A stretch of DNA of 64,000 nt from a virus, in the IMG/VR virus record IMGVR_UViG_3300050821_006746, positions 45,142 through 109,141 of that record. One strand, written 5' to 3'. The notes beneath the pieces were generated by a model, which was given only the letters and a program-made list of their open reading frames with translations, searched no databases and was not told the DNA's origin. Each line of letters starts with the position of its first letter. Positions within the stretch are counted from its first letter, which is position 1. Below are positions 44,970-63,659 of this stretch, piece by piece. A program made the position numbers and the translations under genes.

Positions 44970-45167
44970 GCGAACGGCGCAAGATCAAAATTGTCACTGA
45001 TGCTGTGGGGATACCTCATGTGTATGTGATTGGGACAGACATAGAACTCGACGGCGTGCTCTCCTGCAATGTGGTTGTCAAGCCAACGGATGTCCCTGTT
45101 GTTCAGATAGAGATCATGGAGCCGGAAGTCGAAATAAAACCAGTGTCTAGAAAGTAGGGACAACAGG

Positions 45168-45644: not shown

Positions 45645-45977
45645 ATGTTCACGCCATATAAGAACCACACCACGAGGCTAGCCGCTACCATGTACGCGCC
45701 ATGTGCAAGCGTTGGCTGTATTGAGCACGCCAAGCCTGAGAACGCCATAGAGGCAAAACTAGACATCTTTGGCTCTCCACTGGTGCATGTGTGCTTCTGT
45801 GATGGTCATTATGGTTTTCTGATGGGCGATACAGCGGAGCATGAGATTATACCGGATATTGCGGTAGAGGAGAAACCACTACACACAGGCGGCATTGCCA
45901 TTGTTGGCGAAGCTGGTAACGATGAAATCGTGTATCTGCCACAAGGCAGTAGCGTTTATCCAGTGGCTAAGGAGTAG
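45645..45977 (+). CDS. Small Cys/His protein ending in tape-measure C-terminal motif
   Basis: C..xxC...CxxH; HTGGIAIVGEAGNDEIVYLPQGSSVYP. Confidence 0.65.
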   Translation: MFTPYKNHTTRLAATMYAPCASVGCIEHAKPENAIEAKLDIFGSPLVHVCFCDGHYGFLMGDTAEHEIIPDIAVEEKPLHTGGIAIVGEAGNDEIVYLPQGSSVYPVAKE

Positions 45978-46258: not shown

Positions 46259-46648
46259 ATGGCGCGAGATGTGCATATTGACGCTGGCTACTTTAACAAG
46301 CCAATCCAGTTCCAGTCCGAGCAAACTACTCCTGATGGATCAGGTGGTAGTACAGCAACGGGATGGACAACTGCTTATAAGTGCATGGCTCATATCGATA
46401 ATCTTACCGATTCGACAACAGCGATTAGACGCATAGCAACACGGCCATTTCAGTTCATGCAGCTCTATCCTCAGATGGACGCATTGATGTCTATACGCTA
46501 TCAAGCAAGCACGGCGCTTACACCAGCAATGACCATACTTTATAGAAATCGACGATATCAAATTATTGATTTGATTACTCCACATGAGGAGTTAGTTGCG
46601 ATTGTAATACCCGTAGTGCTCTATCAAGCGCCTGGTACACCGGGATAA
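46259..46648 (+). CDS. Head-tail adaptor/head closure protein (gp16-like)
   Basis: AG.FN..I.FQ...PDGSGG...W; IRY...MTILYRNRRYQI. Confidence 0.85.
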   Translation: MARDVHIDAGYFNKPIQFQSEQTTPDGSGGSTATGWTTAYKCMAHIDNLTDSTTAIRRIATRPFQFMQLYPQMDALMSIRYQASTALTPAMTILYRNRRYQIIDLITPHEELVAIVIPVVLYQAPGTPG

Positions 46649-46657
46649 GGGGGTAGT

Positions 46658-47083
46658 ATGACGATTGTAGGCGGATCATCGCTGCTTCCAACACAGGAGG
46701 CGGTCTACACGGTACTCACTGGCAATGCAGGCTTTACTAGCATCTGCGCAGGTCCTTTCGATCCAGCCCCGATAAATCAGGCGTTTCCTTATAGTGCGTT
46801 TGGGGCACATACCGAGTCCGCTTGGTATCAATTCCAGAAAACCAGCAAGCAGATTGATTTCGTTATTCATGTTTATAGCAAGCAACCAACATTTGCAGAA
46901 GCGATGACCATCTTGAATGTGATTAATGGCTTGATCGAGGGACAAACGCTGAGTTTAACAAGCGGGAATTACACCAACGCTGAGAATGGTGTGCTATTTG
47001 TTAGTGCTCGCAAGGTTGAGGAGCCTGATGGACTCACACGACATCTCGAATGTAGATGGCATATCTATAACAATGCCAACTAG
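46658..47083 (+). CDS. Tail completion/terminator protein (DUF3168-like)
   Basis: QEAVYTVLTG...FD..P...FPY..FG; IHVYS; DGLTRH. Confidence 0.8.
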   Translation: MTIVGGSSLLPTQEAVYTVLTGNAGFTSICAGPFDPAPINQAFPYSAFGAHTESAWYQFQKTSKQIDFVIHVYSKQPTFAEAMTILNVINGLIEGQTLSLTSGNYTNAENGVLFVSARKVEEPDGLTRHLECRWHIYNNAN

Positions 47084-47096
47084 GAGGCGTGACGCA

Positions 47097-47626
47097 ATGA
47101 CACCAGAACAAGAACAGGCACTCACTGACAAGATGGCTGGTATCGGCTACCCAGATTTCGATGTGATGCCAGGCGAAGAGAGTGTGCTCATGCTCCATGT
47201 ACAGAGTAAGCTGATTGGTGGCACGCTCTATGCATTGGGATTGCCAGATGAGCAGTTGAAGGCACTGATTGATGAGACGGTGGCAGGAGGACAAAGCTGA
47301 TGGGCGCAATCCGATTGGAGCACGCAAAGGGTAGGAATTTCACTGCTGAGGAGTTGGTTGGGCGACAAATCAGGATTGAAGGGCCAGTTCCTAAGAGGGG
47401 AACGCAGCCTATTGGGTACAACATGCTGATCGTTGCCGATGATGAGAGTATCGATAATGCGTGCAAGCTTGAGTTGAGCATAGAGCCTGATGCTGTAATT
47501 GAAGCAAGGGTGACGCTCTATCGCTTTGACTTGGCAACCGCAGAAGAACGTGTGCCGACTGAGGTGGTTACGCTGAGGGATAACATCGAAGTGTCGTTCT
47601 CTGCTATCGTATCGGAGGTGGAATGA
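47097..47626 (+). other. Two small hypothetical genes
   Basis: Coupled ORFs 47097-47300 and 47300-47626. Confidence 0.55.
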
Positions 47627-48030
47627 TGGGCGCAAGAGTCATTATCGAATGGGATGGGTTGGAGCAGGTAATCTCCAATCTCGCGGATCTTGGGGAGAAA
47701 GCACCGCAGAACCTTGAGCATCAGATGGCAGAACTGGCAAGCGCAACGGAGGATGCATGGAAAGAGAGCACGCCGCGACGAACGGGCAGGCTGCAAGAAG
47801 CAGATATCGTGGAGACGGGTGGCATGTCATTTACGCTGAATAATGCTACCCGGTACTACGATTGGGTAGATCGGGGGCACATGACTCCAGCAGGTTGGCG
47901 TACCAGACATGGCTATCGTCCCGCCAAACGCCGGTCTCATGTTGAGGGGCAAGAGATGACTGATAAGGCTGTTCAGTTTATTGAGGAGAATATTGAGGAT
48001 TATCTCTCGAAGTTCTTGGATAACATATAG
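47623..48030 (+). CDS. HK97 gp10-like tail component
   Basis: GLEQV, TPRRTGRL, YYDWVDRGH. Confidence 0.8.
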   Translation: MMGARVIIEWDGLEQVISNLADLGEKAPQNLEHQMAELASATEDAWKESTPRRTGRLQEADIVETGGMSFTLNNATRYYDWVDRGHMTPAGWRTRHGYRPAKRRSHVEGQEMTDKAVQFIEENIEDYLSKFLDNI

Positions 48031-48236: not shown

Positions 48237-48335
48237 ATTGTGTGCCTCTGCAAGTGCGCTAACACTCCAGAGGCCGACCCTGAGTGTAAGTTCAAGGCAA
48301 GGTTATTATACCTTGTTAGGAAAGGGGTTTCTACC

Positions 48336-49061
48336 ATGTCTGGGCCAAAAGGCAACAAGAATGCTTTGGGATATCGACACACTGAGGAGGCAAAGAAACA
48401 TCTAGCGGATATCGCAAGAGGTAAGGAGGGATCAGAGAAACAGCGGCAAACTGTAATTGCTCTAAACAAATCAAGATCGGGCCAACCTGGACATCTCCAC
48501 ACAGAGGAGTCACGTCGAAAAATAGCAGAAGCCCATCGAGCACGCTGGAATGATCCCGAATGGAGAGCTAAAAGAGCCAAACAACTAAGGGAGGCTTTTG
48601 AGCAACCTGAAGCGATAGAGAAGATGAGAGAAGGCGTCACTGCCCATTGGTCAACCATTAGTTACGAAGAGAGACTAGAGCGCAATGCTGCAGGGCGAAA
48701 GGCTTCTCTGGAAGCAAATCCAACGAGCATTGAAATAAAGGTAAGTCAATACTTAGAAAATCTTGGCATTCAATTTATTGAGCAAAAGCAGGAAGGCCCA
48801 TACTTTCTAGACTTTTATCTTCCTGTAAAGAGGGTCATTGTAGAGGCGATGGGATGCTATTTTCATTCTTGTGCTGTTTGTGGGAAGCAAAATGCTTACA
48901 AGCCCGATGCTCCTGCTTATGACGCAAGGCGTAAGAATTATCTAGAAAAGAGGGGGTATCACGTCATTTGGATATGGGAACATGATATTAACAGGGATGT
49001 TGAGTTTGTACTTCGCCCTCTCTTGGAAAAATGTGGGGCGATAGAATACCCTACGGGGTAA
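48336..49061 (+). CDS. NUMOD3-repeat + DUF559/Vsr-like endonuclease
   Basis: HTEEAKKHL, HTEESRRKIAEA; PTSIE...LDF...IVEAMGCYFH...D..R...GY.V..IWEHD. Confidence 0.85.
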   Translation: MSGPKGNKNALGYRHTEEAKKHLADIARGKEGSEKQRQTVIALNKSRSGQPGHLHTEESRRKIAEAHRARWNDPEWRAKRAKQLREAFEQPEAIEKMREGVTAHWSTISYEERLERNAAGRKASLEANPTSIEIKVSQYLENLGIQFIEQKQEGPYFLDFYLPVKRVIVEAMGCYFHSCAVCGKQNAYKPDAPAYDARRKNYLEKRGYHVIWIWEHDINRDVEFVLRPLLEKCGAIEYPTG

Positions 49062-49102: not shown

Positions 49103-49216
49103 GAGCCTTGAGCCACGGAACTGAGCATATCAGTATCGTGGCTTTTTTGATAAGTAGCCTTGAGCCTTGAGCCTTTTGACTACCAGTATCTTTTGGTAAG
49201 AAAGGCAGAAAAGGCA
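49103..49216 (+). promoter_or_regulatory. GAGCCTT repeats overlapping a terminator and an RBS-sequestering hairpin
   Basis: GAGCC at 49103, 49110, 49162, 49169 (TAGCC 49155); AGCCACG/CGTGGCT+T run; GCCTTTT/AAAAGGC. Confidence 0.6.
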
Positions 49217-49600
49217 TTGACAGCTTTAGCAGGAATCGGCGCGTCGGTCCAAGAATCTAGCACGGCCTTTACTGATTCAAGTAAATGGACTCTATCCCTC
49301 AAAAACGCCACCAAAGATGTCACCCCATTCGGGGCATCTGGCAGTTGGGCTATAAACATCCCCACGATCAACTCATGGACCGCAAAGGTATCTGTGTTCA
49401 TTGATCCTAGCGACACAGCACAATCAAACCTCAACGCACTGCTTGGGACAGTCGTATCACTCACGCTCAATGTGAGTGGTACGCCTCATGGCTGGACAGG
49501 TAGCGCAATCCTCGCAGGCATCGATCCTAGTGTGGACGCCCAGAGTGCGGAAACATGCGATTACTCCTTTACTGGAAGCGGATCGATCGCTTATTCCTGA
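49217..49600 (+). CDS. Tail tube-like protein 1
   Basis: WTLS...KDVTPFG...I.TINSWT; FTGSG; TTG start. Confidence 0.8.
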   Translation: MTALAGIGASVQESSTAFTDSSKWTLSLKNATKDVTPFGASGSWAINIPTINSWTAKVSVFIDPSDTAQSNLNALLGTVVSLTLNVSGTPHGWTGSAILAGIDPSVDAQSAETCDYSFTGSGSIAYS

Positions 49601-49632
49601 GCTTAAAAACAAACGGAGAGGAGGTAACCGCC

Positions 49633-50331
49633 ATTAGCGCATATGCAGGCATAAATGGGGATGTTTGGCTTTCCACGTCACCCCCAACGGCACTTGGCTC
49701 ACCCGAATCAGTCGCTGACTCAGGTGATCATATTCATTACTTCACAGCAACACATCCGGCGTGGGATTGGACAAAGACGTTGACTGTCCAGTGCTCACCA
49801 AATGGCTCGTCAGGCTGGGCAACCGTGACTGACTACATCTTTTTCTGGCCAGCCGGTGAAGTTGTGTTTAACACGGCGCGCGTACCTGGCACGAATAACT
49901 TCGTGCGCCTATCTGCTGGCAGTTACTTCACACTCTCTGCTCTGGGGGGCGCGCACATGTGGAAAGCGACTGGAAAGGCTGCCACCAAAGATGTGACGCC
50001 GTTCCAGGCCAGCGGTCATTATCAGCAAAACATAGCGACCATCAAATCGTGGACGTTCTCTGTGGACTGCTTCTCTCAGGATGCCAGAATCATGAACGAA
50101 ATGGTCACGGGAATGAGCGGCATCAACACCTCTGGGGGAGTGATCGTTTGCCAGTTGTGGTGGGACGAGACGAATGGCAGGCGCTATCAGTTTTTCGCGC
50201 TCCCAACACAACTGGACACAACTGTTGTGTCCAGCGACGTGGACAAGCAGACGGTGCAAATGACAGTCACCGGGCCACTCTATCAGATCACATCGAACAC
50301 ATTCACGACAGCAACTGTCACACGGATGTAG
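49633..50331 (+). CDS. Tail tube-like protein 2 with inserted domain
   Basis: KDVTPFQ...IATIKSWT paralogous to previous gene; likely ATT start after GGAGG. Confidence 0.75.
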   Translation: MSAYAGINGDVWLSTSPPTALGSPESVADSGDHIHYFTATHPAWDWTKTLTVQCSPNGSSGWATVTDYIFFWPAGEVVFNTARVPGTNNFVRLSAGSYFTLSALGGAHMWKATGKAATKDVTPFQASGHYQQNIATIKSWTFSVDCFSQDARIMNEMVTGMSGINTSGGVIVCQLWWDETNGRRYQFFALPTQLDTTVVSSDVDKQTVQMTVTGPLYQITSNTFTTATVTRM

Positions 50332-50342
50332 AAAGCACATAC

Positions 50343-50819
50343 ATGGCAAAGATAGTAGAACTGGACACAACACAGGAAAAAGCGTCGCCAAACGGCCATG
50401 ACGATACATGGCAGAGTTTTGATAGCGACATTGCACTGCTGCAACACATTCTCTCGAAGAAGCCTGCTGAGAAGCTAGTAGACGTACCAGAGTGGAACGT
50501 GCGTGTGCTTTGTCGTGCGCTCACCGCTGAGCACCGCATTGATGTGGAGACAAGGGCATACAACGCGGAAACAAAGAGAACCAATTACAGCGTTGTCTCG
50601 CACCTGATCTTGATGTATGGCTGCTATAACCCAAGCACCGGCAATCCCGTTTTCTATGGTCTAGACGATAGCGAGGCTGCGCGAAAGCAAAAAGAAGCCA
50701 CCATGAAGACGGTACTCATGCGAGAACAAGACGGCGGCGCTATTGAGCGCCTGTCGTTTGCCATCTTGCGTCTCTCTCGCATGCTGTTCAACGATGCTGA
50801 AAACGCGAAAAAAAACTAG
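50343..50819 (+). CDS. Tail assembly chaperone (G-type)
   Basis: VDVPEW..V..RALT; ends AKKN at A8 run. Confidence 0.85.
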   Translation: MAKIVELDTTQEKASPNGHDDTWQSFDSDIALLQHILSKKPAEKLVDVPEWNVRVLCRALTAEHRIDVETRAYNAETKRTNYSVVSHLILMYGCYNPSTGNPVFYGLDDSEAARKQKEATMKTVLMREQDGGAIERLSFAILRLSRMLFNDAENAKKN

Positions 50820-51166: not shown

Positions 51167-51325
51167 GAAAGAAATACGGTATAAATGACGATATTGGCAG
51201 TTGATACAAAGTGGCATAAGTTGGCTTGTAGAGCCAATCTATGGTATAATATGGGTACAAAAAAGATGTTCGCTCTGGCGGTGCTGGAACACCCCAGAGC
51301 TGATGACAAGAAAGGAACTCTCGTC

Positions 51326-52051
51326 ATGTCCTCAAGTATACCACGCCCTAAAAAGCCTGCCCTGGAACGTTTCCTCTCGTTTGTTGCCGTGCAAGAAGAC
51401 GGTTGTTGGCTGTGGACGGGATGCATAACTAAAGGTGGATATGGAAGTTTTAGAAATGAACACGGGAAAACCGAAAATAGCCATAAATGGGCTTACAAGG
51501 TCTTTATTGGACCTGTCCCTGAGGGGTTAGAACTCGACCACCTTTGCCGAAATCGTGCCTGCGTAAATCCAAATCATCTAGAACCTGTTACTCGTTCCCA
51601 GAATACTGTTCGTGGACTAAAGGGAATACTTAAACCAGGCAAAATATCTAAATATGTAGGCGTGTATTGGACCGAACGCCTACATAAGTGGCGATCCACC
51701 ACGAAAATCAATGGCAAAAGTTACTATCTGGGGCATTTTTCCAGCGAAGAAGAGGCGCATCAAGCATATGTACAGGCTTGTAAATCTTATGAAGCAGATG
51801 GAACAATCCCGGTAAAACTACTTACAGCAAAGAAAACATCTCGCTATCCAGGGGTATCATGGCACAAACGTAAAGAGAAATGGGGGGCATCAGTACGCAT
51901 AAATGGCAAACAATGTTACATTGGCTACTTTGTGTCTGAGGAAGAGGCATATCAGGCATATGTAACCGCCAAAACGAACTTTGAACAATATGGCATTCTC
52001 CCTCAACCAAGATCGTATGCAAGGAAGTTGCAAGAGAGAGGGGGTGATTGA
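51326..52051 (+). CDS. HNH homing endonuclease with two AP2 domains
   Basis: CWLWTG...GYG, LDHLCRNRACVNPNHLEPVT; two SKY.GV.W...W...YLG.F..EEEA repeats. Confidence 0.92.
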   Translation: MSSSIPRPKKPALERFLSFVAVQEDGCWLWTGCITKGGYGSFRNEHGKTENSHKWAYKVFIGPVPEGLELDHLCRNRACVNPNHLEPVTRSQNTVRGLKGILKPGKISKYVGVYWTERLHKWRSTTKINGKSYYLGHFSSEEEAHQAYVQACKSYEADGTIPVKLLTAKKTSRYPGVSWHKRKEKWGASVRINGKQCYIGYFVSEEEAYQAYVTAKTNFEQYGILPQPRSYARKLQERGGD

Positions 52052-55000
52052 TATCAGCGACATTGGCGAAATAAAAGCTCGTGTGACCATCTCTTATGAC
52101 GGCGCGGGGATCGACGAAGCAAAGAAAGACCTCTCAAGCCTCTCGGATATCGTCGGCGGTGGACTGACAGAGAATGTAGGCACCGCGAATGAAGCACTGG
52201 CGTCGCTTGACGAGCAAATGGGCAAGAATGCGGGAAGTGCCAGCGATCTCGTCTCCTCTGTTGGCGCGATCGAAAAACCTATGCAGGCCAGCGCTGATGC
52301 CGTCTCCTCTGTCAATGAAGTCCTGGGTGAGCAGCAAGCGGCGGTAGAAAATGCTGGTACGGCACTGGAGGGCATGCAAAAGCCACTCGAAGATACGACG
52401 ACGCTCATGCAAAATGCCGCACCTCCTATGAAAACCGTTGTCGAGAATGCGACGGCAATGCAGGCACCTCTGGACGCCGCCAACACCGGCTTCGTTCAGA
52501 TGTCCGAAAGCCTCAACAACGCTGTGCCACTTATGCCTCAAATGGCGTCGGGCATAAGTGGCGTTGCTGAGGCACTTGATCCTAAAGCGCTCGGACTCAG
52601 CGCGGCCACCGATAATCTTGCGGTTTTTCAGGATGCGCTGAGCAATCCTCAGCCGTACCAACTAATCGGTGCGCATCTCGACAGCACCGGACAGAGTTGG
52701 GGTGATTTCTTCTCCTCTGTTGGAACCACCAGTGCCACATTTTCACAACAGATGATTGACAATGCTAAGGCGTCCCAGGCGTCGTTCGGCACTATATCAT
52801 CTGGTGCTCAAAGCGCAGAACAGTCATTTTATGTGGTAGGGAATCAAACCAATGCACTAAGCCAATCCATTGCCGGTATCAACACCTCTGGCGGCGTAGG
52901 AACTGCGCTTTACGGACCAGCAGATTCATGGAGCAAACTAAATGCTGGCCTGGCGAGCACGGAAGAGGGGATCAATAAACTCGGTGGCGTGGGGGCAAAT
53001 CTCTATGGCCCAGAAGTGCCCATCAATCTGGGTAGCATGTTTGATGATATATCGGGGAGCATGGGTAAAGGTTTTGGGGGCTTCGTACAGAGCTTCGATA
53101 GCTTTATGAGGCCATTGATGTACCTCCAAATGGCCGGTATGATGGTTGGCGCGGTTTCAACTGGAATTTATAATATGGCGGCTCTGGCAGAGGGGCCAGC
53201 CGCGCACTCGATCGGGTCCTTCACCGGGGCTATTGATGTGATGGGGCAGCAAGCGCAACAGACGGGGCAACAATTCTCAGAGGGTCTAGGTCAAGGCATC
53301 CTGCCGATGATCAATGCGATGAATAATGTCAGCGGCAACAGCAAAAATACTGACTTTTGGGGTGCCGTGGGTACGGGCATTGGTCAAGTGGGTAGCTTGC
53401 TCGGAACGGTTGGACAAGTTGCTGCTGGTGCGATTATGGATCTGCCGTGGCTTGCCTTTACGCCGAGCACGAATATCTCGTCTATGCCAGGCAATAACTT
53501 GATGCAGCAAGGATGGGAGGGACTGCAAAACCTCTGGGCGCAAATCACAGGAGGAAAAGAACCCTTTCCAACCCCTGGTACACCTGGATCACAGGTATCG
53601 TCAGTCCAAGCGTCAATCAATGCAGGCATCCCCGCTATGTATGCGCAAGCGAATGATCCAGGGTACCTGGCCGCTCAGGCGTACGCAAGCAGTCAGATGG
53701 GCTACGCGACACTAGGACAAACTCGCTACGATGTGTCACATCTCAGCGGTTTTGATACTGCCCCCTGGTATCAAGGCGTACCTACAGCAGCAGCGGGTCC
53801 ACTTAACTATGCACCGCAAGCGTATCAACAATCCTTAATGCCACAGATCCTCGCAACTGGTGGTGCCGGGTCCGGTCTTGACGCTGTGGACCTGAACCGG
53901 CTGTACTTTGAAGCGGCGGACGCGCGGGCTGCACTGGTTGCGCCAGAAACCCCTGGTTGTTTCCCTGCTGGCACTCCTGTCTTGCTCGCTGATGGCACTG
54001 AGAAGGCCATTGAAACTCTGCACAGTGGAGATCGAGCGCTTGCCCACGATGGCACCAAACAGGTCACTACAACGATTTTAGCACTTATCAAGCCGCCTCC
54101 AAAGCTCGTTTACAAACTGGCTTTTGACGATGGCAATACATTAACGCTGACTGATTCTCATCCTGTATCGACGGATCGGGGTTGGAAATCACTCTCACCT
54201 GATGCAACGCGAAAAGAGAATCCTGATTTTGCCGTAACAGTATTGCAGATCGGGGATCGCATCCACACGGTTGGCGGCACCTGCACACTGCTGGCAATAC
54301 AGCCATGCGAGATCGTCCAAGTCTACAACATCACGGTTGGCGAGCAGCACACGTTCTATGCTGGTGGTATCCTCGTCCACAACAAAATATCAATGACTGG
54401 TACGCAAGTTATGCAAAACGTGGCGAATACCACCGTGCCTGACATGGACATGAAGAATACCAATCTCATCCAAAGCCTGGCAAGCAACTTTACCGGAGCC
54501 GATATCTCACACACGTTCACAGCGTCGGTCAATTGGGCAGCAACAGGCGACTTAGCGCATACCTTTCAGGGTTCTCCAGGCTGGGCAACAGTCGGTGAGT
54601 TGGCACATATATTTCTGGGTGCTCCTGATTGGGCAACAGTCGGTGAGTTAGCCCACACATTTCAGGGCATTGCTAATTGGGTGGCAACGGGTGGCTTGCA
54701 ACACTCCTTTGAGGGGATTCTCAACTGGGTAGTTCCACCAGAGATTCAACACACGTTCGAGGGTATTGCTAATTGGGTGACATCGGGCGAAATGGCCCAC
54801 ACATTTCAGGGATGGGCGTCGTGGGTTGGACAGGAACTCACCCACACATTCACTGCCGTCGCGAATTGGGTGGTATCTGGGCTCTCGCAAACAGCTTCTG
54901 TGCCTGGATTCGCTGCTGGTGTTCAAAATTTCGGCGGCGGTCTCGCTGTCGTGGGTGAGTACGGGCCTGAGCTGGTGCATCTACCTCAAGGCACCAGCGT

Positions 55001-55178
55001 GTACCCGCAATCAGCAACAGGCGGCTTTTCTGGCCTCAACATGGGCAGTATCGGTGATAGTGGGCAACTCAATCTTACCATCAATCACACAACGATGCTC
55101 AATGGCAAGGTCATGGCACAAGAGACGATCCCTTTGATTGCTCCAATCCTTAGAAGCCAGATGGCGGTGCGCCGATGA
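52044..55178 (+). CDS. Tape measure protein containing a Hint domain and 16-aa repeats
   Basis: Follows G/GT chaperones; A/G/S/Q-rich; C-terminal FAAG...VVGEYGPELVHLP; start GTG 52044 or ATC 52053. Confidence 0.85.
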   Translation: MIDISDIGEIKARVTISYDGAGIDEAKKDLSSLSDIVGGGLTENVGTANEALASLDEQMGKNAGSASDLVSSVGAIEKPMQASADAVSSVNEVLGEQQAAVENAGTALEGMQKPLEDTTTLMQNAAPPMKTVVENATAMQAPLDAANTGFVQMSESLNNAVPLMPQMASGISGVAEALDPKALGLSAATDNLAVFQDALSNPQPYQLIGAHLDSTGQSWGDFFSSVGTTSATFSQQMIDNAKASQASFGTISSGAQSAEQSFYVVGNQTNALSQSIAGINTSGGVGTALYGPADSWSKLNAGLASTEEGINKLGGVGANLYGPEVPINLGSMFDDISGSMGKGFGGFVQSFDSFMRPLMYLQMAGMMVGAVSTGIYNMAALAEGPAAHSIGSFTGAIDVMGQQAQQTGQQFSEGLGQGILPMINAMNNVSGNSKNTDFWGAVGTGIGQVGSLLGTVGQVAAGAIMDLPWLAFTPSTNISSMPGNNLMQQGWEGLQNLWAQITGGKEPFPTPGTPGSQVSSVQASINAGIPAMYAQANDPGYLAAQAYASSQMGYATLGQTRYDVSHLSGFDTAPWYQGVPTAAAGPLNYAPQAYQQSLMPQILATGGAGSGLDAVDLNRLYFEAADARAALVAPETPGCFPAGTPVLLADGTEKAIETLHSGDRALAHDGTKQVTTTILALIKPPPKLVYKLAFDDGNTLTLTDSHPVSTDRGWKSLSPDATRKENPDFAVTVLQIGDRIHTVGGTCTLLAIQPCEIVQVYNITVGEQHTFYAGGILVHNKISMTGTQVMQNVANTTVPDMDMKNTNLIQSLASNFTGADISHTFTASVNWAATGDLAHTFQGSPGWATVGELAHIFLGAPDWATVGELAHTFQGIANWVATGGLQHSFEGILNWVVPPEIQHTFEGIANWVTSGEMAHTFQGWASWVGQELTHTFTAVANWVVSGLSQTASVPGFAAGVQNFGGGLAVVGEYGPELVHLPQGTSVYPQSATGGFSGLNMGSIGDSGQLNLTINHTTMLNGKVMAQETIPLIAPILRSQMAVRR
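53958..54383 (+). other. Hint (intein-like) domain, 142 aa, no homing endonuclease
   Basis: CFPAGTPV (block A), LTDSHP (block B), VYNITV..HTFYAGGILVHN (F/G); next residue is K. Confidence 0.92.
54504..54880 (+). repeat. Eight ~48-bp coding repeats (HTFxGxxxW)
   Basis: LAHTFQGSPGWATVGE-type 16-aa units. Confidence 0.85.
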
Positions 55179-58100
55179 GCATCACATGCACCATCAGCGG
55201 CGTCTCTGTCACGGTTGGCAACGCTTCATTTAGCTTGCAAGACCCGCTTGAGAACAGATCCATCCTCACGTTTACCGTGTTGGACTCAGCAGGCACCGCA
55301 ATATACACGCGTGGACAGCCGGTCACGTTCTCAGATCCCGGCATCCTGAGTTACGTTGGCTATGTCCAATCCGACGCGCCAACCAAAGACGGTTTGGTAC
55401 TGCCGTATGTCGAACACATCGTCACCTGCATGGATGGTCAATATCTGCTCGATAAGCGCTCAAACTCAGTAAATTACCTCAACTGGATAGCGGGCAACAT
55501 CGTCGTTGACTTTGTGCGCAGAGACCTCGCGAATGAGGGCATAACGATTAGCGCTGCAATGCGTCACGACACAACAGTTAGTGACTTCAATCAGGGCAAT
55601 CTCGACGGGACGGTGGGAGCAATCAATACTACTCCTGCCACTACGCTGAATGGGGTTATAAGCACTACAGATGACGGAGATCTAGAGATAGCGGGAGCTG
55701 GTAGTAATCTCACCATTTCCGAATCAACGACAGCACAATTTGCCGCTGGTACGCTCACTAACGTTGCTGCATCGAACAATGCGCTCTCACCATCAACGGT
55801 AAGCGCCTTGTCATTCACAGCGACTTTGCCGGTGGCACTCGCCACAAACAACCTCTATATGGAAATCTGGTCGGGATCTCAGGTTGTGGGCACCAATGAC
55901 ACGCTCAATTATGACATCTGGATCAGTTCAACGTCACCAGCGTTCAATGCAGGTGTCGATCTCAATTTCAGTGATAGCACCAGCCTTAACACTTACGTGG
56001 GTCCAACCGATGACAACACCCTGGCAGCCTCGCCTACAACCGATCTTTCAGGGTACGCCAAAGACACATGGTACACGCGCTCTATCGCACTCGGCACTGT
56101 CATCAATGGCAAAACGGTCAATAGCGTGTGTGTAGCCGTGGCTGGCAACAGCGCCGGGACGTACAACATTTTCTTTAAGAATATCTATCTCGGCTCGCAC
56201 TCAGGTAGTCCATTCTTTTCGACGAGTGCCACTGCTACCCAGGTCAACCCGTCCACAGTGTTCTCTAACGCGACCTACCCCGGAACGTTGGCATCAACAA
56301 GCGTGGTACAGGCGATCAGCTCGAATACTGTGAACCGGGTTTCGTCTGCCTATTCTATCGACGCCGTGAAGCTAACAAACTCTACCTTTATCACATGGGA
56401 TTCAACCTCCCCATCCAACTCACTTGTGCAAATGTCCGTGTCCTACGATGGCAACGCATTCTTGCTCTGTACGAATGGCGCGCCGCTACCGGGTCTACCT
56501 GCCGGGTCAAACGTGGCTGGAACATCGCTCTACCTGCAAGAGATCTTCGTCACGGGTATCACACCGACCGCGTTTCCGTCCCTCTCAGCGGTGACGGTGA
56601 CGCTTACAACGGCACCCAATGCCACGAAGAGTGATGTCACAACCAGTTACGGCACCTCTGCACAGTGGAACGCAGGGACGCTCACTGGTGTGGCACCCAA
56701 CGCAAACGGGGATCTGACTTTACTCAATTCAGTACGCACATGGAACGATAACCTGATCACTAATCAGACATTTTTTCCATCGTCTGGCGGTTCGCCCACT
56801 CAGTCGGCCAGCGGTGGTACATATAACCAGATTATCCCAGGCAACGGGAGCTTCCCAGGCTTCTGGGCGCTCTCACGGATGGACTTTATTGCGGCAAGGG
56901 CGGATTTCTCCCTTGATGTTGATACAACCTTTGCCTTTTCCGGCTCAGGAACGCCCGTAGGGAAGATAGGCATTGTCTACCGTGGCACAGGGTGGTCTTC
57001 GGCTGACCAGAACTACGCCTATGTCGTGCTTGTCACCTGGACAAGCAGCCCAACCATCGAGATTGGTTACGGATCGAATAGTAGCGGAGGTTCGACTGGC
57101 ACCTACACGCTGGTCAAGAACGCCTCAGTCGCGCTTGGTACCGGCTCGAATCATCTCAAGATTGTCGTAAGTGGCAAAACGCATCAAGTCTTCTGGGCGG
57201 GATCGTCAAGCCCGATTCTCACCGCAACCGACTCAACCTATATGAGTGCGGGTCAGTTCGGCATTATCACCTACGGCGACGATGTAAGCGCGACTGAAAC
57301 ATTGACTGGCAAGTATGACAATCTGGTGGTTTCCTCGAATATCGGCACGTGGCAATCGGGTTCTGTCTCCCTGGCTGCGCTCACAACCATCGAGGGAAGT
57401 AACATCTCCTGGCTGGAAACGCTGGCTACAGGTGTCCCATCGGCCACGGCCATCGTCTCAACGAGTATCGACGGTGGCACGACTTGGAAGCCATGCACGA
57501 ACAATGCACCCATTCCCCAACTGCTAGAGGGAACAAACGTGTCGTCCCTCTCACTGATTGCGCGCATCATCTTGTTCAGTGCGACTTATGCCGCCAACCC
57601 CGTCATCGGTGGCTTGAACTGGCGCGTACTGGGCGCATTCCCAACGGTGACAGGCACGCGGGACACGGCACCGTTGGGCAATGATATGCAGATCACGCGT
57701 ACGGTCGGTAGCGGCTGGGGCAATGCGTTTGATAGCCAAACCTGGACACAGGCAGGCACAGGCGCTACAGCAGTGGCGACAGGCGAAGCGACGATCACCA
57801 ACACGACCGGGACCGTCTATATGCGGCTCGGTACGCGCACCGGGACCAACATCCAGGGCACGCACCGCTTCTCTCTCTCGTCCAGCGCGGAGACGGCGGG
57901 AATCTTTCTGCGTTACGTGGACACCAACAACTACTACGCGCTCGCTGCCACGACGAGCACAACCTCCATTCTTAAGAGACTGGCAGGCGTAACCACGACA
58001 TTGGCAAGTGTGAGTATGGCGCTGAGCATCAATACTCCGTACCAGATGCACTTTTTGACAGCAAACTCTGGGCCAGTCTCGCTCTTTGGCAATATGTGGG

Positions 58101-58180
58101 CGGATGGAAGCCTAGAACCAACGGTAAATTCACTAGGCCAGTGGAATGATAGCCTCTGGGTTATCACAGCACTTGATTAG
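55175..58180 (+). CDS. Tail tip/hub protein N-terminal part with beta-sandwich domains
   Basis: Coupled to tape measure; S/T/G-rich; lectin-like repeats. Confidence 0.75.
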   Translation: MSITCTISGVSVTVGNASFSLQDPLENRSILTFTVLDSAGTAIYTRGQPVTFSDPGILSYVGYVQSDAPTKDGLVLPYVEHIVTCMDGQYLLDKRSNSVNYLNWIAGNIVVDFVRRDLANEGITISAAMRHDTTVSDFNQGNLDGTVGAINTTPATTLNGVISTTDDGDLEIAGAGSNLTISESTTAQFAAGTLTNVAASNNALSPSTVSALSFTATLPVALATNNLYMEIWSGSQVVGTNDTLNYDIWISSTSPAFNAGVDLNFSDSTSLNTYVGPTDDNTLAASPTTDLSGYAKDTWYTRSIALGTVINGKTVNSVCVAVAGNSAGTYNIFFKNIYLGSHSGSPFFSTSATATQVNPSTVFSNATYPGTLASTSVVQAISSNTVNRVSSAYSIDAVKLTNSTFITWDSTSPSNSLVQMSVSYDGNAFLLCTNGAPLPGLPAGSNVAGTSLYLQEIFVTGITPTAFPSLSAVTVTLTTAPNATKSDVTTSYGTSAQWNAGTLTGVAPNANGDLTLLNSVRTWNDNLITNQTFFPSSGGSPTQSASGGTYNQIIPGNGSFPGFWALSRMDFIAARADFSLDVDTTFAFSGSGTPVGKIGIVYRGTGWSSADQNYAYVVLVTWTSSPTIEIGYGSNSSGGSTGTYTLVKNASVALGTGSNHLKIVVSGKTHQVFWAGSSSPILTATDSTYMSAGQFGIITYGDDVSATETLTGKYDNLVVSSNIGTWQSGSVSLAALTTIEGSNISWLETLATGVPSATAIVSTSIDGGTTWKPCTNNAPIPQLLEGTNVSSLSLIARIILFSATYAANPVIGGLNWRVLGAFPTVTGTRDTAPLGNDMQITRTVGSGWGNAFDSQTWTQAGTGATAVATGEATITNTTGTVYMRLGTRTGTNIQGTHRFSLSSSAETAGIFLRYVDTNNYYALAATTSTTSILKRLAGVTTTLASVSMALSINTPYQMHFLTANSGPVSLFGNMWADGSLEPTVNSLGQWNDSLWVITALD

Positions 58181-60200: not shown

Positions 60201-63200
60201 GTGACAATTTTCTATGGCTCGTCGATTGCGAATGGCACCATTACCACGGCCAATACTGCCTCTACCACTACGGGTGGCACCGAGACCAGTAAGACAAGCA
60301 CGTGGTCCGGTGGCAATCACTTTGCCGAAGTATGGTCACAGGGCGGATCGTCTACACCTGCAACGTCTATCCCGGCAACACCTGACGGGCATGGGTGGGT
60401 CACGGCTGCTCCTGGCGCGGGATCATTTGCGAACGCCAACTGGTCCGCATCTATCGCCCTCGCTCTCTCCAGCAGCTCCACCGTTTCGTGGACGGTGCGC
60501 TTTTTCAAATATAGTTCTGGCACCTATACCTCTATAGGAACGATTGCCACCTCTGCTGCCAGCCTGGGCACCTCGCGTACCGTTATTTCTTTCGCAGCAA
60601 CCTCAATGGCACTGACTACCTTTGGGGCAGCCGATCTGCTGTATGTGGATCTATGGATGCAAGACACGACCGGGGCGGGCGGAGATAACGCGATTGTGTA
60701 CGAGTCGAACAGCGCAACTCAGGGGGTAGCCAATGATGTGCAAATCACCACGAGCACATTTACCCCATCTGGCACTACCAATAGCCGCACTGTTCCCGCT
60801 ACTGCTGCGTTGCTGCAAACCAGTTCACGCACCGTGCCCGCTACCGCTGCCCTCCAAGCAACAAACTCGCGGACTGTACCTGCAACGGTCGCATTGCTCC
60901 AAACCAGTAGCAGAACCGTGCCCGCTACGGCTGCCCTGGCCAACACATTCAGTAGGACCGTTCCCGCTACTATCGCGCTCGACCAGCCTAGCAGCCGAAC
61001 GGTTCCCGCTACTATCGCGCTTTCAGGAACGTTTAGCCGAACGGTTCCCGCTGTTGTTGCTCTCACTCACACGAGCACGCGAACGGTCCCAGCCAGCATC
61101 GCTCTCTCAACGACTGGACATCGGACTATTCCAGCCAGTATGGCGCTGACCATCGAGATTGCCAGTGGCGGATTCGGCGTGTTCGCAAGCGGACCAAACA
61201 CGGTTTCTTTCGACCATCTGAGATTTACCGAGTATCCTGATCCTGCTCTATGCCTCGCGCCTGTGTTGCCGCGTTTGGGTAGCACCACCGTTGCATGGGA
61301 TGAGGCTATCCCGACGAACGGAGCATGCACAGTCAAAACAAGCCTGGATGGGGTCAACTGGACGGCGATTCCTACACCAACGGCCATGAAATTTGATGGC
61401 ACGAGCGGCTATATCAGCCTGCCAACAACGGGACTACCAACTGGGGCTGCAGCGTGGAGTATGGAGTGCTGGTGTCAGATGCCAAATCCGCTACCAACGA
61501 CAGGGACCGGATTCAACACGACTATGAGCATGGGTACGCCTGGCGTCTCAAACGAGTTTGCATACATCTACTACCGCACAACCGCGACTGCATTTCGTAT
61601 TGACGTGGTAAGCACAAGCATTCAAAGCTCGGTAGTTGTTCCAGGTGGCATCTATCACTTGGTTGCTACCTATGATGGCACAACGCTCAAATTTTTTATG
61701 AACGACATATTGCAGGGAAGCGCAACCGTCACGCTCAACATCACTGCCAGCATTGCGCAAATTGGCAATGACAATTCAGGAGACTTCTGGGCAGGAGTTG
61801 AGCAGGCCAGCGCGTTCTACTCTACCGCGCTCTCTGCCGCCCAAGTCAGCAATCACTTCGCAGCCGGGCTAGTTCCCAATACCTACAACGCGGTAGTGCT
61901 TGCTGACTCGCCAATTCGCTTCTACCTGCTCAATGATGCCGGTACGACAGTCGTCGATAGCGGATCACAGGCGCAAAATGGCACAACACATGGCACAATC
62001 TTGGCGAACGTTCCAGGGATCATTGCCAGCACCAACAGTAACACCAACACGATACCGGGCCTGACTGGGCAGCCTGATCCAACCATCGATATTTTTACAG
62101 TAAACTCGTCAGCAAATTATACGAATACAGCCAAATCAGGCGGTAGCGTGTCCACGGTGGCGTATGACACAGCAAACAGCCGCATAACGCTTTCAGGCGG
62201 CTCCGGTGGTCTCTATCTCTATACTGCCATCAACGACAATGATGTGGATTTGATTGCTGATATGGACGAGTCGGACGCAGGCGGCCTCGTGTGGCGATTT
62301 GTTGATACCAACAACTACTACGAGTTGGGCGCATACGATGATAGCTCGTCCAGCGGCTTTACAAATCAGCTGCGCTTGTACAAGGTTGTGGCTGGTACTC
62401 GCTCACTGATCGGAAGTGCTTCTGTCATCTCATGGCCACGTTCAACGCCTGGCAGTAGCCCATACAAGAGAATCCGAGTAACGATGCTCGGAACCACGAT
62501 CACCGTGTATTTTGATGGCACAGTCATGCAAACCGCGACGGATAGCACGTTCGCGAGTGGTCAGATGGGACTACGCAACGACGGGGGCACATCACGCTAC
62601 TATCAGCTTCGATTGCAGGCGGTTGGGGATTATGTGAGCGGCACACCTGCTGGGGATATCGTGACGAGTGATTTTGTCTACACACAAGTAACACTCTCGA
62701 CGACCGATCCCACCGTCAACCCGCGAATCCAAGACTTGACCACAACGGCAAATAGCCCATCCGTTGGCAACGGCCTGGTCATCCCGCAGTTGCATGATCC
62801 AACCAAACCGTTCGCGGCATTCTACAACGCTGAGATGGACTCACTCGCACAATCGAGTGGAGATTTCTATTGGGCTGTTAACAGCAATGCACTTTCCTTT
62901 GTGGGTCGTCAGGCAGTACCCGCGCCCTGGTGTCTTCACAGTGCAGATTTGTTGTTTACCCCAACCGTGAAGCCGACATTCAGCGCGGATCTCTACCGCA
63001 ACCGCATGAAGATCACCAACTGCCTGGGCACAGTCACCATCACTGGCGAGCAGAAGATAGCCGATGGGACAGCTTCTTCGTGGCAGATGGCCTATCCGCT
63101 CTACAGTGAGCCGAGCATAAACGTGCAGGGTGTTTTCAAGACGGTCGGCGTGCAGGGCGGTACTGTTATAGCTGATTTCTACTGGCAAGCGGCATCAAAC

Positions 63201-63659
63201 AGCATTAGCCAAGACCCAAGCGCGGCAAAGATCCCATCGGGCTATGTAATCAGCGTCGATTATACCGGCCAATTTCCGACAACAGTCGTACGTGACAATT
63301 TGCCAGAGCAGGAGGCGCGCAAATCCGTTGAGAACAACACCGGCATTATAGAGATGATCGAGGATGGCAAGCAGATGCTCGTGAGCGCGGCGCAGATCTA
63401 CGCTGATGGCTTGCTTGCCCGCAATGCAAACAACAATACGGTAGAAATCGTGGTCACAACACAAAGGAGCGGATTACAGAAGGGGCAAGTAGTCCCTGTA
63501 TTCTTAGAGGAATTTAACATCAATAATGCGCAACTGCTGATCACGAATGTGGCCACGATCGGAGAGCAACGGGCAGATGGGACAATTTTGTATCAGTGGA
63601 CGATAACAGCAACGAACGGCCCGAACCTTTCTAAGTGGTCATCGTCATTAGGTTTATGA
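60201..63659 (+). CDS. Tail fibre/tip protein with LamG-like domain and hub-like C-terminus
   Basis: 14-aa repeats; FDGTSGYI...WSMECW...YHLVATYDG (LamG/ConA); C-terminal DSLAQSSG.FYW...RN. Confidence 0.8.
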   Translation: MTIFYGSSIANGTITTANTASTTTGGTETSKTSTWSGGNHFAEVWSQGGSSTPATSIPATPDGHGWVTAAPGAGSFANANWSASIALALSSSSTVSWTVRFFKYSSGTYTSIGTIATSAASLGTSRTVISFAATSMALTTFGAADLLYVDLWMQDTTGAGGDNAIVYESNSATQGVANDVQITTSTFTPSGTTNSRTVPATAALLQTSSRTVPATAALQATNSRTVPATVALLQTSSRTVPATAALANTFSRTVPATIALDQPSSRTVPATIALSGTFSRTVPAVVALTHTSTRTVPASIALSTTGHRTIPASMALTIEIASGGFGVFASGPNTVSFDHLRFTEYPDPALCLAPVLPRLGSTTVAWDEAIPTNGACTVKTSLDGVNWTAIPTPTAMKFDGTSGYISLPTTGLPTGAAAWSMECWCQMPNPLPTTGTGFNTTMSMGTPGVSNEFAYIYYRTTATAFRIDVVSTSIQSSVVVPGGIYHLVATYDGTTLKFFMNDILQGSATVTLNITASIAQIGNDNSGDFWAGVEQASAFYSTALSAAQVSNHFAAGLVPNTYNAVVLADSPIRFYLLNDAGTTVVDSGSQAQNGTTHGTILANVPGIIASTNSNTNTIPGLTGQPDPTIDIFTVNSSANYTNTAKSGGSVSTVAYDTANSRITLSGGSGGLYLYTAINDNDVDLIADMDESDAGGLVWRFVDTNNYYELGAYDDSSSSGFTNQLRLYKVVAGTRSLIGSASVISWPRSTPGSSPYKRIRVTMLGTTITVYFDGTVMQTATDSTFASGQMGLRNDGGTSRYYQLRLQAVGDYVSGTPAGDIVTSDFVYTQVTLSTTDPTVNPRIQDLTTTANSPSVGNGLVIPQLHDPTKPFAAFYNAEMDSLAQSSGDFYWAVNSNALSFVGRQAVPAPWCLHSADLLFTPTVKPTFSADLYRNRMKITNCLGTVTITGEQKIADGTASSWQMAYPLYSEPSINVQGVFKTVGVQGGTVIADFYWQAASNSISQDPSAAKIPSGYVISVDYTGQFPTTVVRDNLPEQEARKSVENNTGIIEMIEDGKQMLVSAAQIYADGLLARNANNNTVEIVVTTQRSGLQKGQVVPVFLEEFNINNAQLLITNVATIGEQRADGTILYQWTITATNGPNLSKWSSSLGL
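60780..61157 (+). repeat. Nine 42-bp coding repeats (SRTVPATxAL)
   Basis: Tandem 14-aa units visible in protein and DNA. Confidence 0.9.

Follow-up and report, generated by a model that had tools for sequence, protein, structure and literature searches.

A lysine-flanked, intein-like Hint domain within a predicted phage tape measure protein

Introduction

How the tape measure protein of a phage tail is processed is an old open point, and the protease acting on lambda gpH and T5 pb2 is not named in the literature that we found. A 64,000-nucleotide stretch of viral DNA raises this point in a different form. The stretch (hereafter the window) covers positions 45,142 to 109,141 of IMG/VR record IMGVR_UViG_3300050821_006746, a complete record of an uncultured virus that measures 109,141 bp and has direct terminal repeats; the window forms its right-hand 64 kb. 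Its predicted tape measure gene (52044..55178, + strand) encodes, inside the ruler itself, a Hint domain that ends in His-Asn and is followed by lysine. Canonical inteins need Cys, Ser or Thr at this +1 position. What would such a domain do in a tape measure: cut the ruler in two, or leave it and close the gap? An earlier reading of the DNA letters (the sequence-only reading) had proposed a built-in protease that matures the tape measure. Here we describe the domain, its family and its relatives in other phage proteins, and weigh this proposal against self-excision with re-joining of the ruler.

Results

A complete Hint domain lies in frame in the tape measure

The Hint domain comprises 142 amino acids, residues 660–801 (53958..54383, + strand), in the numbering of the 1065-residue open reading frame (ORF) 51981–55178 that is used throughout. 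Its catalytic residues are Cys660 (Cys1; codon 53958–53960), the Thr724-x-x-His727 motif (54150–54161) and the terminal His800-Asn801 pair (54378–54383). Gly659 (53955..53957, +) stands at −1, on the N-terminal side of the scissile bond, and Lys802 (54384..54386, +), the hallmark that accompanies the Hint, stands at +1. Each element that the sequence-only reading had described, from Cys1 through Thr-x-x-His to a terminal His-Asn and the following Lys, was confirmed. The domain had been placed about 640 residues into the protein, in agreement with the ~638 residues counted from the likely GTG start at 52044 (659 by ORF numbering). There is one Hint per protein and no endonuclease within it.

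Profile searches recognized the domain as a Hint. Pfam PF01079 (Hint) matched with 40 bits (E = 4.2e-10; gathering cut-off 29.7) and was also matched by 33 of 34 relatives. Both NCBIfam intein models passed on the isolated domain, intein_Nterm with 26.3 (cut-off 24.5) and intein_Cterm with 22.8 (cut-off 15.6). PF07591 (PT-HINT) remained below its gathering cut-off of 27.7, scoring 20.0 bits with the whole protein and 23.5 with the fragment, and matched 19 of 34 relatives at E < 0.01. The Vint, Hom_end_hint and Intein_splicing profiles all fell under their cut-offs in the Pfam scan.

The AlphaFold2 model, built with the family alignment, had a predicted local distance difference test (pLDDT) score above 90 across the entire Hint. 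When the model was compared with the PDB using Foldseek, the top match was BIL2, a bacterial intein-like (BIL) domain of the Tetrahymena BUBL1 locus (E = 1.4e-12, target TM-score 0.83, 21% identity), followed by mini-inteins, the C. thermocellum BIL (2LWY) and Hedgehog.

The Hint resembles type-A BIL domains

We then compared the domain with known Hint systems. It shares the fold and blocks A, B, F and G with canonical class-1 mini-inteins (Ssp DnaB, gp41-1, Mtu RecA). A published list places canonical inteins in tape measures of actinophages (bioRxiv 10.1101/2025.01.02.630785); these inteins are likewise in-frame insertions in a phage structural gene. The present domain differs from canonical class-1 inteins in that its +1 residue is mostly Lys, Ala, Ile, Gly or Pro across the family, the host protein lacks conservation at the insertion site and no endonuclease is present.

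Type-A BIL domains are defined by a C-terminal His-Asn and the absence of a +1 nucleophile (PMC4031507). They can splice through a free amino group without that nucleophile, but yield mostly cleavage products in assays (PMC4031507). Like the type-A BILs (Amitai 2003; Dassa 2004; C. thermocellum 2LWY), the tape measure Hint has the Hint fold, an N-terminal Cys, a C-terminal His-Asn, no +1 nucleophile and a site in a variable region; by expectation, a thioester forms and Asn cyclises, with cleavage and a share of ligation as the outcome. The similarity to 2LWY is clear in fold (E = 1e-9, target TM-score 0.82) and marginal in sequence (phmmer E = 0.036). The differences are the host protein, here a phage tape measure, the invariant Lys at +1 to +3 and the long vertical inheritance within one family.

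The best structural match, BIL2 of Tetrahymena thermophila BUBL1 (PDB 6Y75, 6TMM), is also preceded by an N-extein ending in Gly. An isopeptide formed by the ε-amine of a Lys in its C-terminal flank has been reported for BIL2 (PMC8616854). This flanking Lys is the reported nucleophile, and the tape measure Hint has its conserved Lys at +1 to +3. Unlike the present domain, BIL2 is eukaryotic, lies between ubiquitin-like domains, is activated by zinc and also conjugates in trans; the match to it is one of fold.

Pretoxin HINT domains (PF07591, e.g. PDB 8W20) gave the best PDB sequence match (E = 3.7e-8), and a related Hint with a His-Asn-Lys (HN-K) end occurs in the Rhs protein P0085. Their presumed function is autoproteolytic release. 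In the tape measure, however, no toxin domain follows the Hint, but repeats and a tape-measure C-terminal motif.

By its defining motifs (Cys1 ... His-Asn, without a +1 nucleophile), the Hint is type-A BIL-like and not a canonical intein. We assign it to this class because it has the residues of the published BIL definition, lacks the +1 residue and the conserved insertion site of canonical inteins, and scores below the PF07591 cut-off. Our literature search returned no paper on a conserved, Lys-flanked Hint without a nucleophile in tape measures; only the canonical actinophage inteins and unrelated cases were found.

Lysine accompanies every Hint copy of the family

The tape measure family is small: a search with the N-terminal 638 residues against 1.84 billion cluster representatives gave 45 matches, and further members came from word-indexed searches and IMG/VR. 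The census of boundary residues covers 65 distinct Hint copies of this family. Cys1 and the His-Asn pair were present in all 65, no copy had broken catalytic residues, and Gly occupied −1 in 58. The +1 residue was Lys in 44 copies, Ala in 14, Ile in 3, Ser in 2, and Pro and Gly in 1 each; Cys or Thr was found at +1 in none of the 65. Lys itself was always within three residues after the Asn, at +1 in 44 copies, at +2 in 20 and at +3 in 1. The frequency of Lys in the flanking hinge is just 0.6–1.0%.

Several clades of the tree, each with its own support, contain both HN-K and HN-A-K forms in alternation: the Lys has repeatedly moved between positions and has never been lost. Given these invariant residues, the Hint evidently has to work wherever it is present. 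The earlier description of a Hint without a +1 nucleophile thus extends to the whole family, in catalytically intact copies. The census also excludes the possibilities that the Lys is a sequencing error or a product of recent intein decay.

The Hint has co-diverged with its host protein

No segment of the tape measure is better conserved than the Hint, whose mean pairwise identity is 62%, compared with 33–40% in its flanks. Second to it is a hydrophobic segment, residues 371–450 (53091..53330, +), with 58% identity and many near-invariant residues. Divergence of the Hint tracks that of the N-terminal part (Mantel r = 0.51, 0/2000 permutations), and does so more closely than the flanks track each other. 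In full-length members, the Hint lies 232–378 residues from the C-terminal end, whereas the N-terminal part ranges from ~500 to ~1285 residues. The domain is inserted not into a conserved motif but into a hinge that varies in length and, in most members, is rich in Gly. A recently mobile intein was rejected, given the lack of an endonuclease and the tracking of the N-terminal part. The Hint is inherited with the tape measure gene, co-diverging with it and not currently mobile.

Six of 65 full-length relatives lack the Hint (P0034, P0041, P0044, P0056, P0061 and P0067). All six run as an unbroken chain over the junction, in most cases a Gly-rich hinge, and none of the six has a Lys there. In a FastTree tree from the non-Hint columns, they are scattered among Hint-bearing relatives, and well-supported branches force at least four changes; this tree carries one long-branch warning (L011 with P0067). 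The alignment of homologues with and without the insert, proposed with the sequence-only reading, gave continuous forms lacking the junction Lys on one side and Hint-bearing forms lacking a normal Cys or Thr at +1 on the other.

The Hint is evidently dispensable. Because the six relatives are continuous and scattered, cutting the ruler in two is not required by this tail. An ancestral Hint with repeated loss would be the simplest reading of the distribution, and recombination in a mosaic gene could contribute to it; the boundaries of the Hint-less alleles are blurred by low-complexity sequence. Proteins shorter than 585 residues were searched for forms split at the Hint, whose existence would have spoken for cleavage, and none was found, with only P0037 coming up. 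Short matches of the N-terminal search may be fragments cut off at the end of a contig; P0040, for example, stops directly ahead of the Hint position.

Related Hints in other phage proteins

The nearest Hints outside the family, with 28–36% identity, are Lys-flanked and occur in other phage proteins; canonical inteins stand further off. In the same search, HN-Cys inteins of the canonical kind, with LAGLIDADG domains, were matched in their terminal blocks only, with far lower scores.

Some of these Hints form the C-termini of tail-fibre-like proteins (collagen repeats, DUF5122, DUF4815), with tails of 8–52 residues after the Hint. Three large examples (L018:4638-8513, L019:4641-8468 and L026:4407-8540), carrying collagen repeats, a DUF5122 beta-propeller or DUF4815/phrog_358, have a terminal Hint that closes with ILVHNK and an 8–21-residue tail. 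This arrangement suggests C-terminal self-removal of the Hint from the fibre proteins. Phage proteins of 734–790 residues (phrog_21587; P0081–P0087, P0090) end in two or three tandem Hints, as do ORFs of ~737 residues at loci L021–L025 and L033 (e.g. L022:6609-8819), which close with a terminal Hint array. Within the phrog_21587 arrays, the first His-Asn abuts the next Cys1, the middle unit ends in HN-[YFL]-K and the last in HNK-stop or HNKK-stop. In P0088 and P0089, three tandem Hints lie near the N-terminus, separated only by K-G or K-G-G-G linkers, and Pfam PF04280 is also present. P0085 (1657 residues), an Rhs-repeat, polymorphic-toxin-like protein, has two Hints, one ending in HN-K and the other in HN-Q-C. 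The Lys-flanked Hint type is widespread among tail proteins of uncultured phages.

Start and identity of the tape measure gene

The tape measure ORF is open from 51981, and the gene caller placed its start at ATG 51990. GTG 52044 is likely to be the true start, because it overlaps the TGA stop of the preceding HNH-AP2 gene (GTGATTGA), has a purine-rich stretch upstream and yields an N-terminus resembling that of the homologues. The protein of the window matched no Pfam or PHROG tape measure profile. PF24164 (TMP_N) was matched weakly by 5 of 34 relatives (best E = 0.0011). In tblastn against 50,697 phage records, the protein as a whole had no relative; the only matches were to inteins encoded within helicase or terminase genes and, over short C-terminal stretches, to tape measures.

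As PHROGs gave no family for this tape measure, its identity rests on synteny and on the C-terminal motif. The ORF stands in the series major tail protein, tail assembly chaperone, tape measure, with the HNH-AP2 gene interposed, and the same order from major tail protein through chaperone to tape measure recurs at the related loci L002 and L011. We regard the tape measure assignment of ORF 51981–55178, made by these comparisons, as sound but not proven.

The C-terminal part

The region after the Hint comprises 264 residues and consists of a poorly conserved linker, Trp repeats and a tape-measure end motif. The linker (54387..54509, +) has 33% mean identity and low pLDDT. It is followed by eight H-T-F-x-G-x-x-x-W repeats with a spacing of 16/15 residues (54510..54890, +), which at the DNA level are only partly repetitive (48-bp period, 2.4 copies) and were modelled by AlphaFold2 with low confidence (pLDDT 30–45). 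Relatives carry 0–13 such units or other repeat types, for example IQLPHIDL. The module had earlier been described as ~265 residues of eight repeats with a GExGPE end; the eight repeats and the end motif stand, but the repeats fill only ~125 of the 264 residues.

The end motif (PGFAxGVxNFGGGLAVVGExGPELV...; 54888..55004, +), which contains GGLAVVGEYGPELV, was recognized by its similarity to tape measure proteins. It is 57% identical over 58 residues to P0037, a PF20155 tape measure protein, and in tblastn it matches annotated tape measures of Geobacillus phage GBSV1 and Bacillus phage 1. It was modelled as beta-hairpins (pLDDT 62–80), and a C-terminal helix follows (55104..55163, +; model residues 403–422, pLDDT about 71–77). 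A copy of the motif was also observed far upstream, at window positions 45849–45968 in a small ORF (45645–45977, +); it is 50% identical (E = 3.5e-5) to residues 315–352 of the Hint-plus-C-terminal fragment.

Genome context

The order of the late operon was assigned by PHROGs, reading from the large terminase to the tape measure ORF. It comprises the large terminase (31926), portal (35070), head protease (38195), major head protein (40077), and head closure, tail terminator and Neck1 proteins (46259–48030). Two adjacent and overlapping ORFs (49160–49600 and 49555–50331, +) both match the major tail protein family phrog_1407 and look like paralogous tail tube genes. The tail assembly chaperone follows (49959–50819, +; phrog_344, E = 2.8e-7).

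Between the chaperone and tape measure genes lies a free-standing HNH-AP2 homing endonuclease gene (51185–52051, +; Pfam HNH_3 and AP2; PHROG HNH endonuclease, E = 3e-51). It is a separate gene of the context and not part of the Hint. A second endonuclease gene (48240–49061) was observed upstream of the major tail protein genes.

Downstream of the tape measure, the large tail genes 55175–58180 (1001 residues) and 60201–63659 (1152 residues), both on the + strand, had no PHROG match. The sole Pfam match in these genes was Laminin_G_3 in the 60201–63659 product. The terminase of this phage shares 45% identity with its counterpart in a Methanoculleus virus and ~41% with those of Rhizobium phages, a split that does not point to one host.

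Discussion

In this tape measure Hint, every residue that an N-S acyl shift (Cys1, Thr-x-x-His) or the cyclisation of Asn (His-Asn) requires is present and strictly conserved. From fold and catalytic residues, which sequence, model and family comparison show, we infer how the thioester would be resolved. Our preference, a tentative one, is that the Hint excises itself and that an amine, that of the lysine, re-joins the tape measure. After translation, the Gly659–Cys660 bond would be converted to a thioester, which would then be resolved by an amine of the C-terminal flank, most likely the ε-amine of Lys802 as in Tetrahymena BIL2, or alternatively by the α-amine freed by Asn cyclisation as in type-A BILs. 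Asn801 would cyclise and the 142-residue Hint would depart. The ruler would thereby become one continuous chain, as in the relatives without a Hint, and some unligated N- and C-terminal fragments would arise as by-product. Amine chemistry is at least as well indicated as plain cleavage, because Lys is found with every Hint copy and is absent where the Hint is absent. In the distinct Hint units retrieved outside the family, Lys likewise stands at +1 or +2 (HN-K or HN-x-K) in 39 of 40. Moreover, Asn and Lys are both kept in Hints that end in HNK-stop or HNKK-stop, and this makes sense only if Asn cyclisation follows transfer onto the Lys. Since the Hint-less relatives are continuous, an unbroken ruler is functional.

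Several observations weigh against re-joining. Cleavage products dominate the published type-A BIL assays (PMC4031507), and the T5 and lambda tape measures are truly cleaved near the equivalent position (bioRxiv 10.1101/2022.09.20.507954). Retention of the Hint in 59 of 65 relatives, when imprecise loss from a Gly-rich hinge looks easy, hints at a benefit beyond mere self-removal. The Lys might also serve another role, as catalytic base or as structural residue. Furthermore, the related Hint units outside the family were retrieved with patterns and words from block F/G of this family, which may have enriched HN-K ends.

A stronger form of the same idea, which we consider unlikely, is that Hint and Lys together make a self-sufficient splicing cassette with its own amine nucleophile. 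The Lys802 ε-amine would attack the Gly659 thioester in cis, Asn801 would cyclise, and the halves would be joined by a Gly-(ε)Lys isopeptide that leaves a branched scar. The phage HN-K Hints in tape measures, tail-fibre-like proteins and tandem arrays would then be one clade acting alike, and would represent a natural class of lysine-based protein splicing.

The built-in maturation protease of the sequence-only reading is possible as well, though in our view a little less likely. Here the Hint would only cleave: the Gly659 thioester would be hydrolysed or thiolysed, Asn801 would cyclise, and an N-terminal ruler/membrane fragment would be separated from a 264-residue C-terminal tip module, either at tail assembly or on ejection into the thiol-rich cytoplasm. 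Tail precedents make this attractive. The tape measures of T5 (pb2) and lambda are cleaved during tail morphogenesis (bioRxiv 10.1101/2022.09.20.507954; PMC8616854), and in T5 the site lies between a hydrophobic stretch and the C-terminal domain, with both pieces remaining in the tail and the C-terminal one forming a trimer in the hub (bioRxiv 10.1101/2022.09.20.507954). As in T5 pb2 (to pb2* and pb2C) and lambda gpH (to gpH*), the Hint of the present protein would place processing between a hydrophobic stretch and a putatively tip-bound C-terminal part. However, no Hint domain is reported at the T5 and lambda cleavage sites (bioRxiv 10.1101/2022.09.20.507954), and the metallopeptidase motif of T5 pb2C is absent from the C-terminal module of this phage by Pfam scan. 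Cleavage is also what prevails in type-A BIL assays (PMC4031507), and it fits the absence of a Cys or Thr nucleophile at +1 in all 65 copies, the position of the Hint at a fixed distance from the C-terminal end while the N-terminal part varies, and its standing as the most conserved segment, retained in 91% of relatives despite easy loss. Yet six relatives without a Hint work as one continuous chain, and in a limited search no relative had the two parts as separate genes. Cleavage alone explains neither the constant association of Lys with the Hint nor the retention of Asn and Lys where nothing follows, and cleavage before assembly would separate the ruler from the tip initiator. Re-ligation and cleavage may both occur, as rival outcomes of a single reaction.

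Transfer in trans seems improbable to us. In this case, a Lys from a different tail protein, or from an adjacent chain of the tape measure, would attack the Gly659 thioester and cross-link the ruler covalently in the tail tip, much as BIL2 of BUBL conjugates a ubiquitin-like domain. In keeping with it, the top fold match BIL2 does conjugate to Lys of other proteins (PMC8616854), Cys1 follows Gly-Gly or x-Gly in 58 of 65 copies, and related Hints sit at the C-termini of tail-fibre-like proteins. But the Hint-less relatives need no such link, and the conserved Lys stands in cis, right at the active site. Most improbable of all is that the domain is a canonical intein whose +1 residue has decayed or was mis-sequenced, or that it is an inactive remnant serving as a structural spacer. 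The NCBIfam intein N- and C-terminal models do exceed their cut-offs, and canonical inteins are listed in actinophage tape measures (bioRxiv 10.1101/2025.01.02.630785). Against this, the +1 residue is non-nucleophilic family-wide, across proteins just 30–58% identical, and the catalytic residues are invariant in 65 of 65 copies, unlike decay; there is no homing endonuclease, and the insertion lies in a variable hinge instead of a conserved motif.

In this phage, the putative processing chemistry is encoded within the tape measure protein itself, and its possible outcomes are two: built-in cutting of the ruler, or lysine-based splicing of it. Lysine splicing, if true, would widen the known mechanisms of protein splicing and could give a small ligation module of 142 residues that works without Cys, Ser or Thr at the junction. 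As Hints of this Lys-flanked type are widespread among tail proteins of uncultured phages, the answer would reach far past this one phage.

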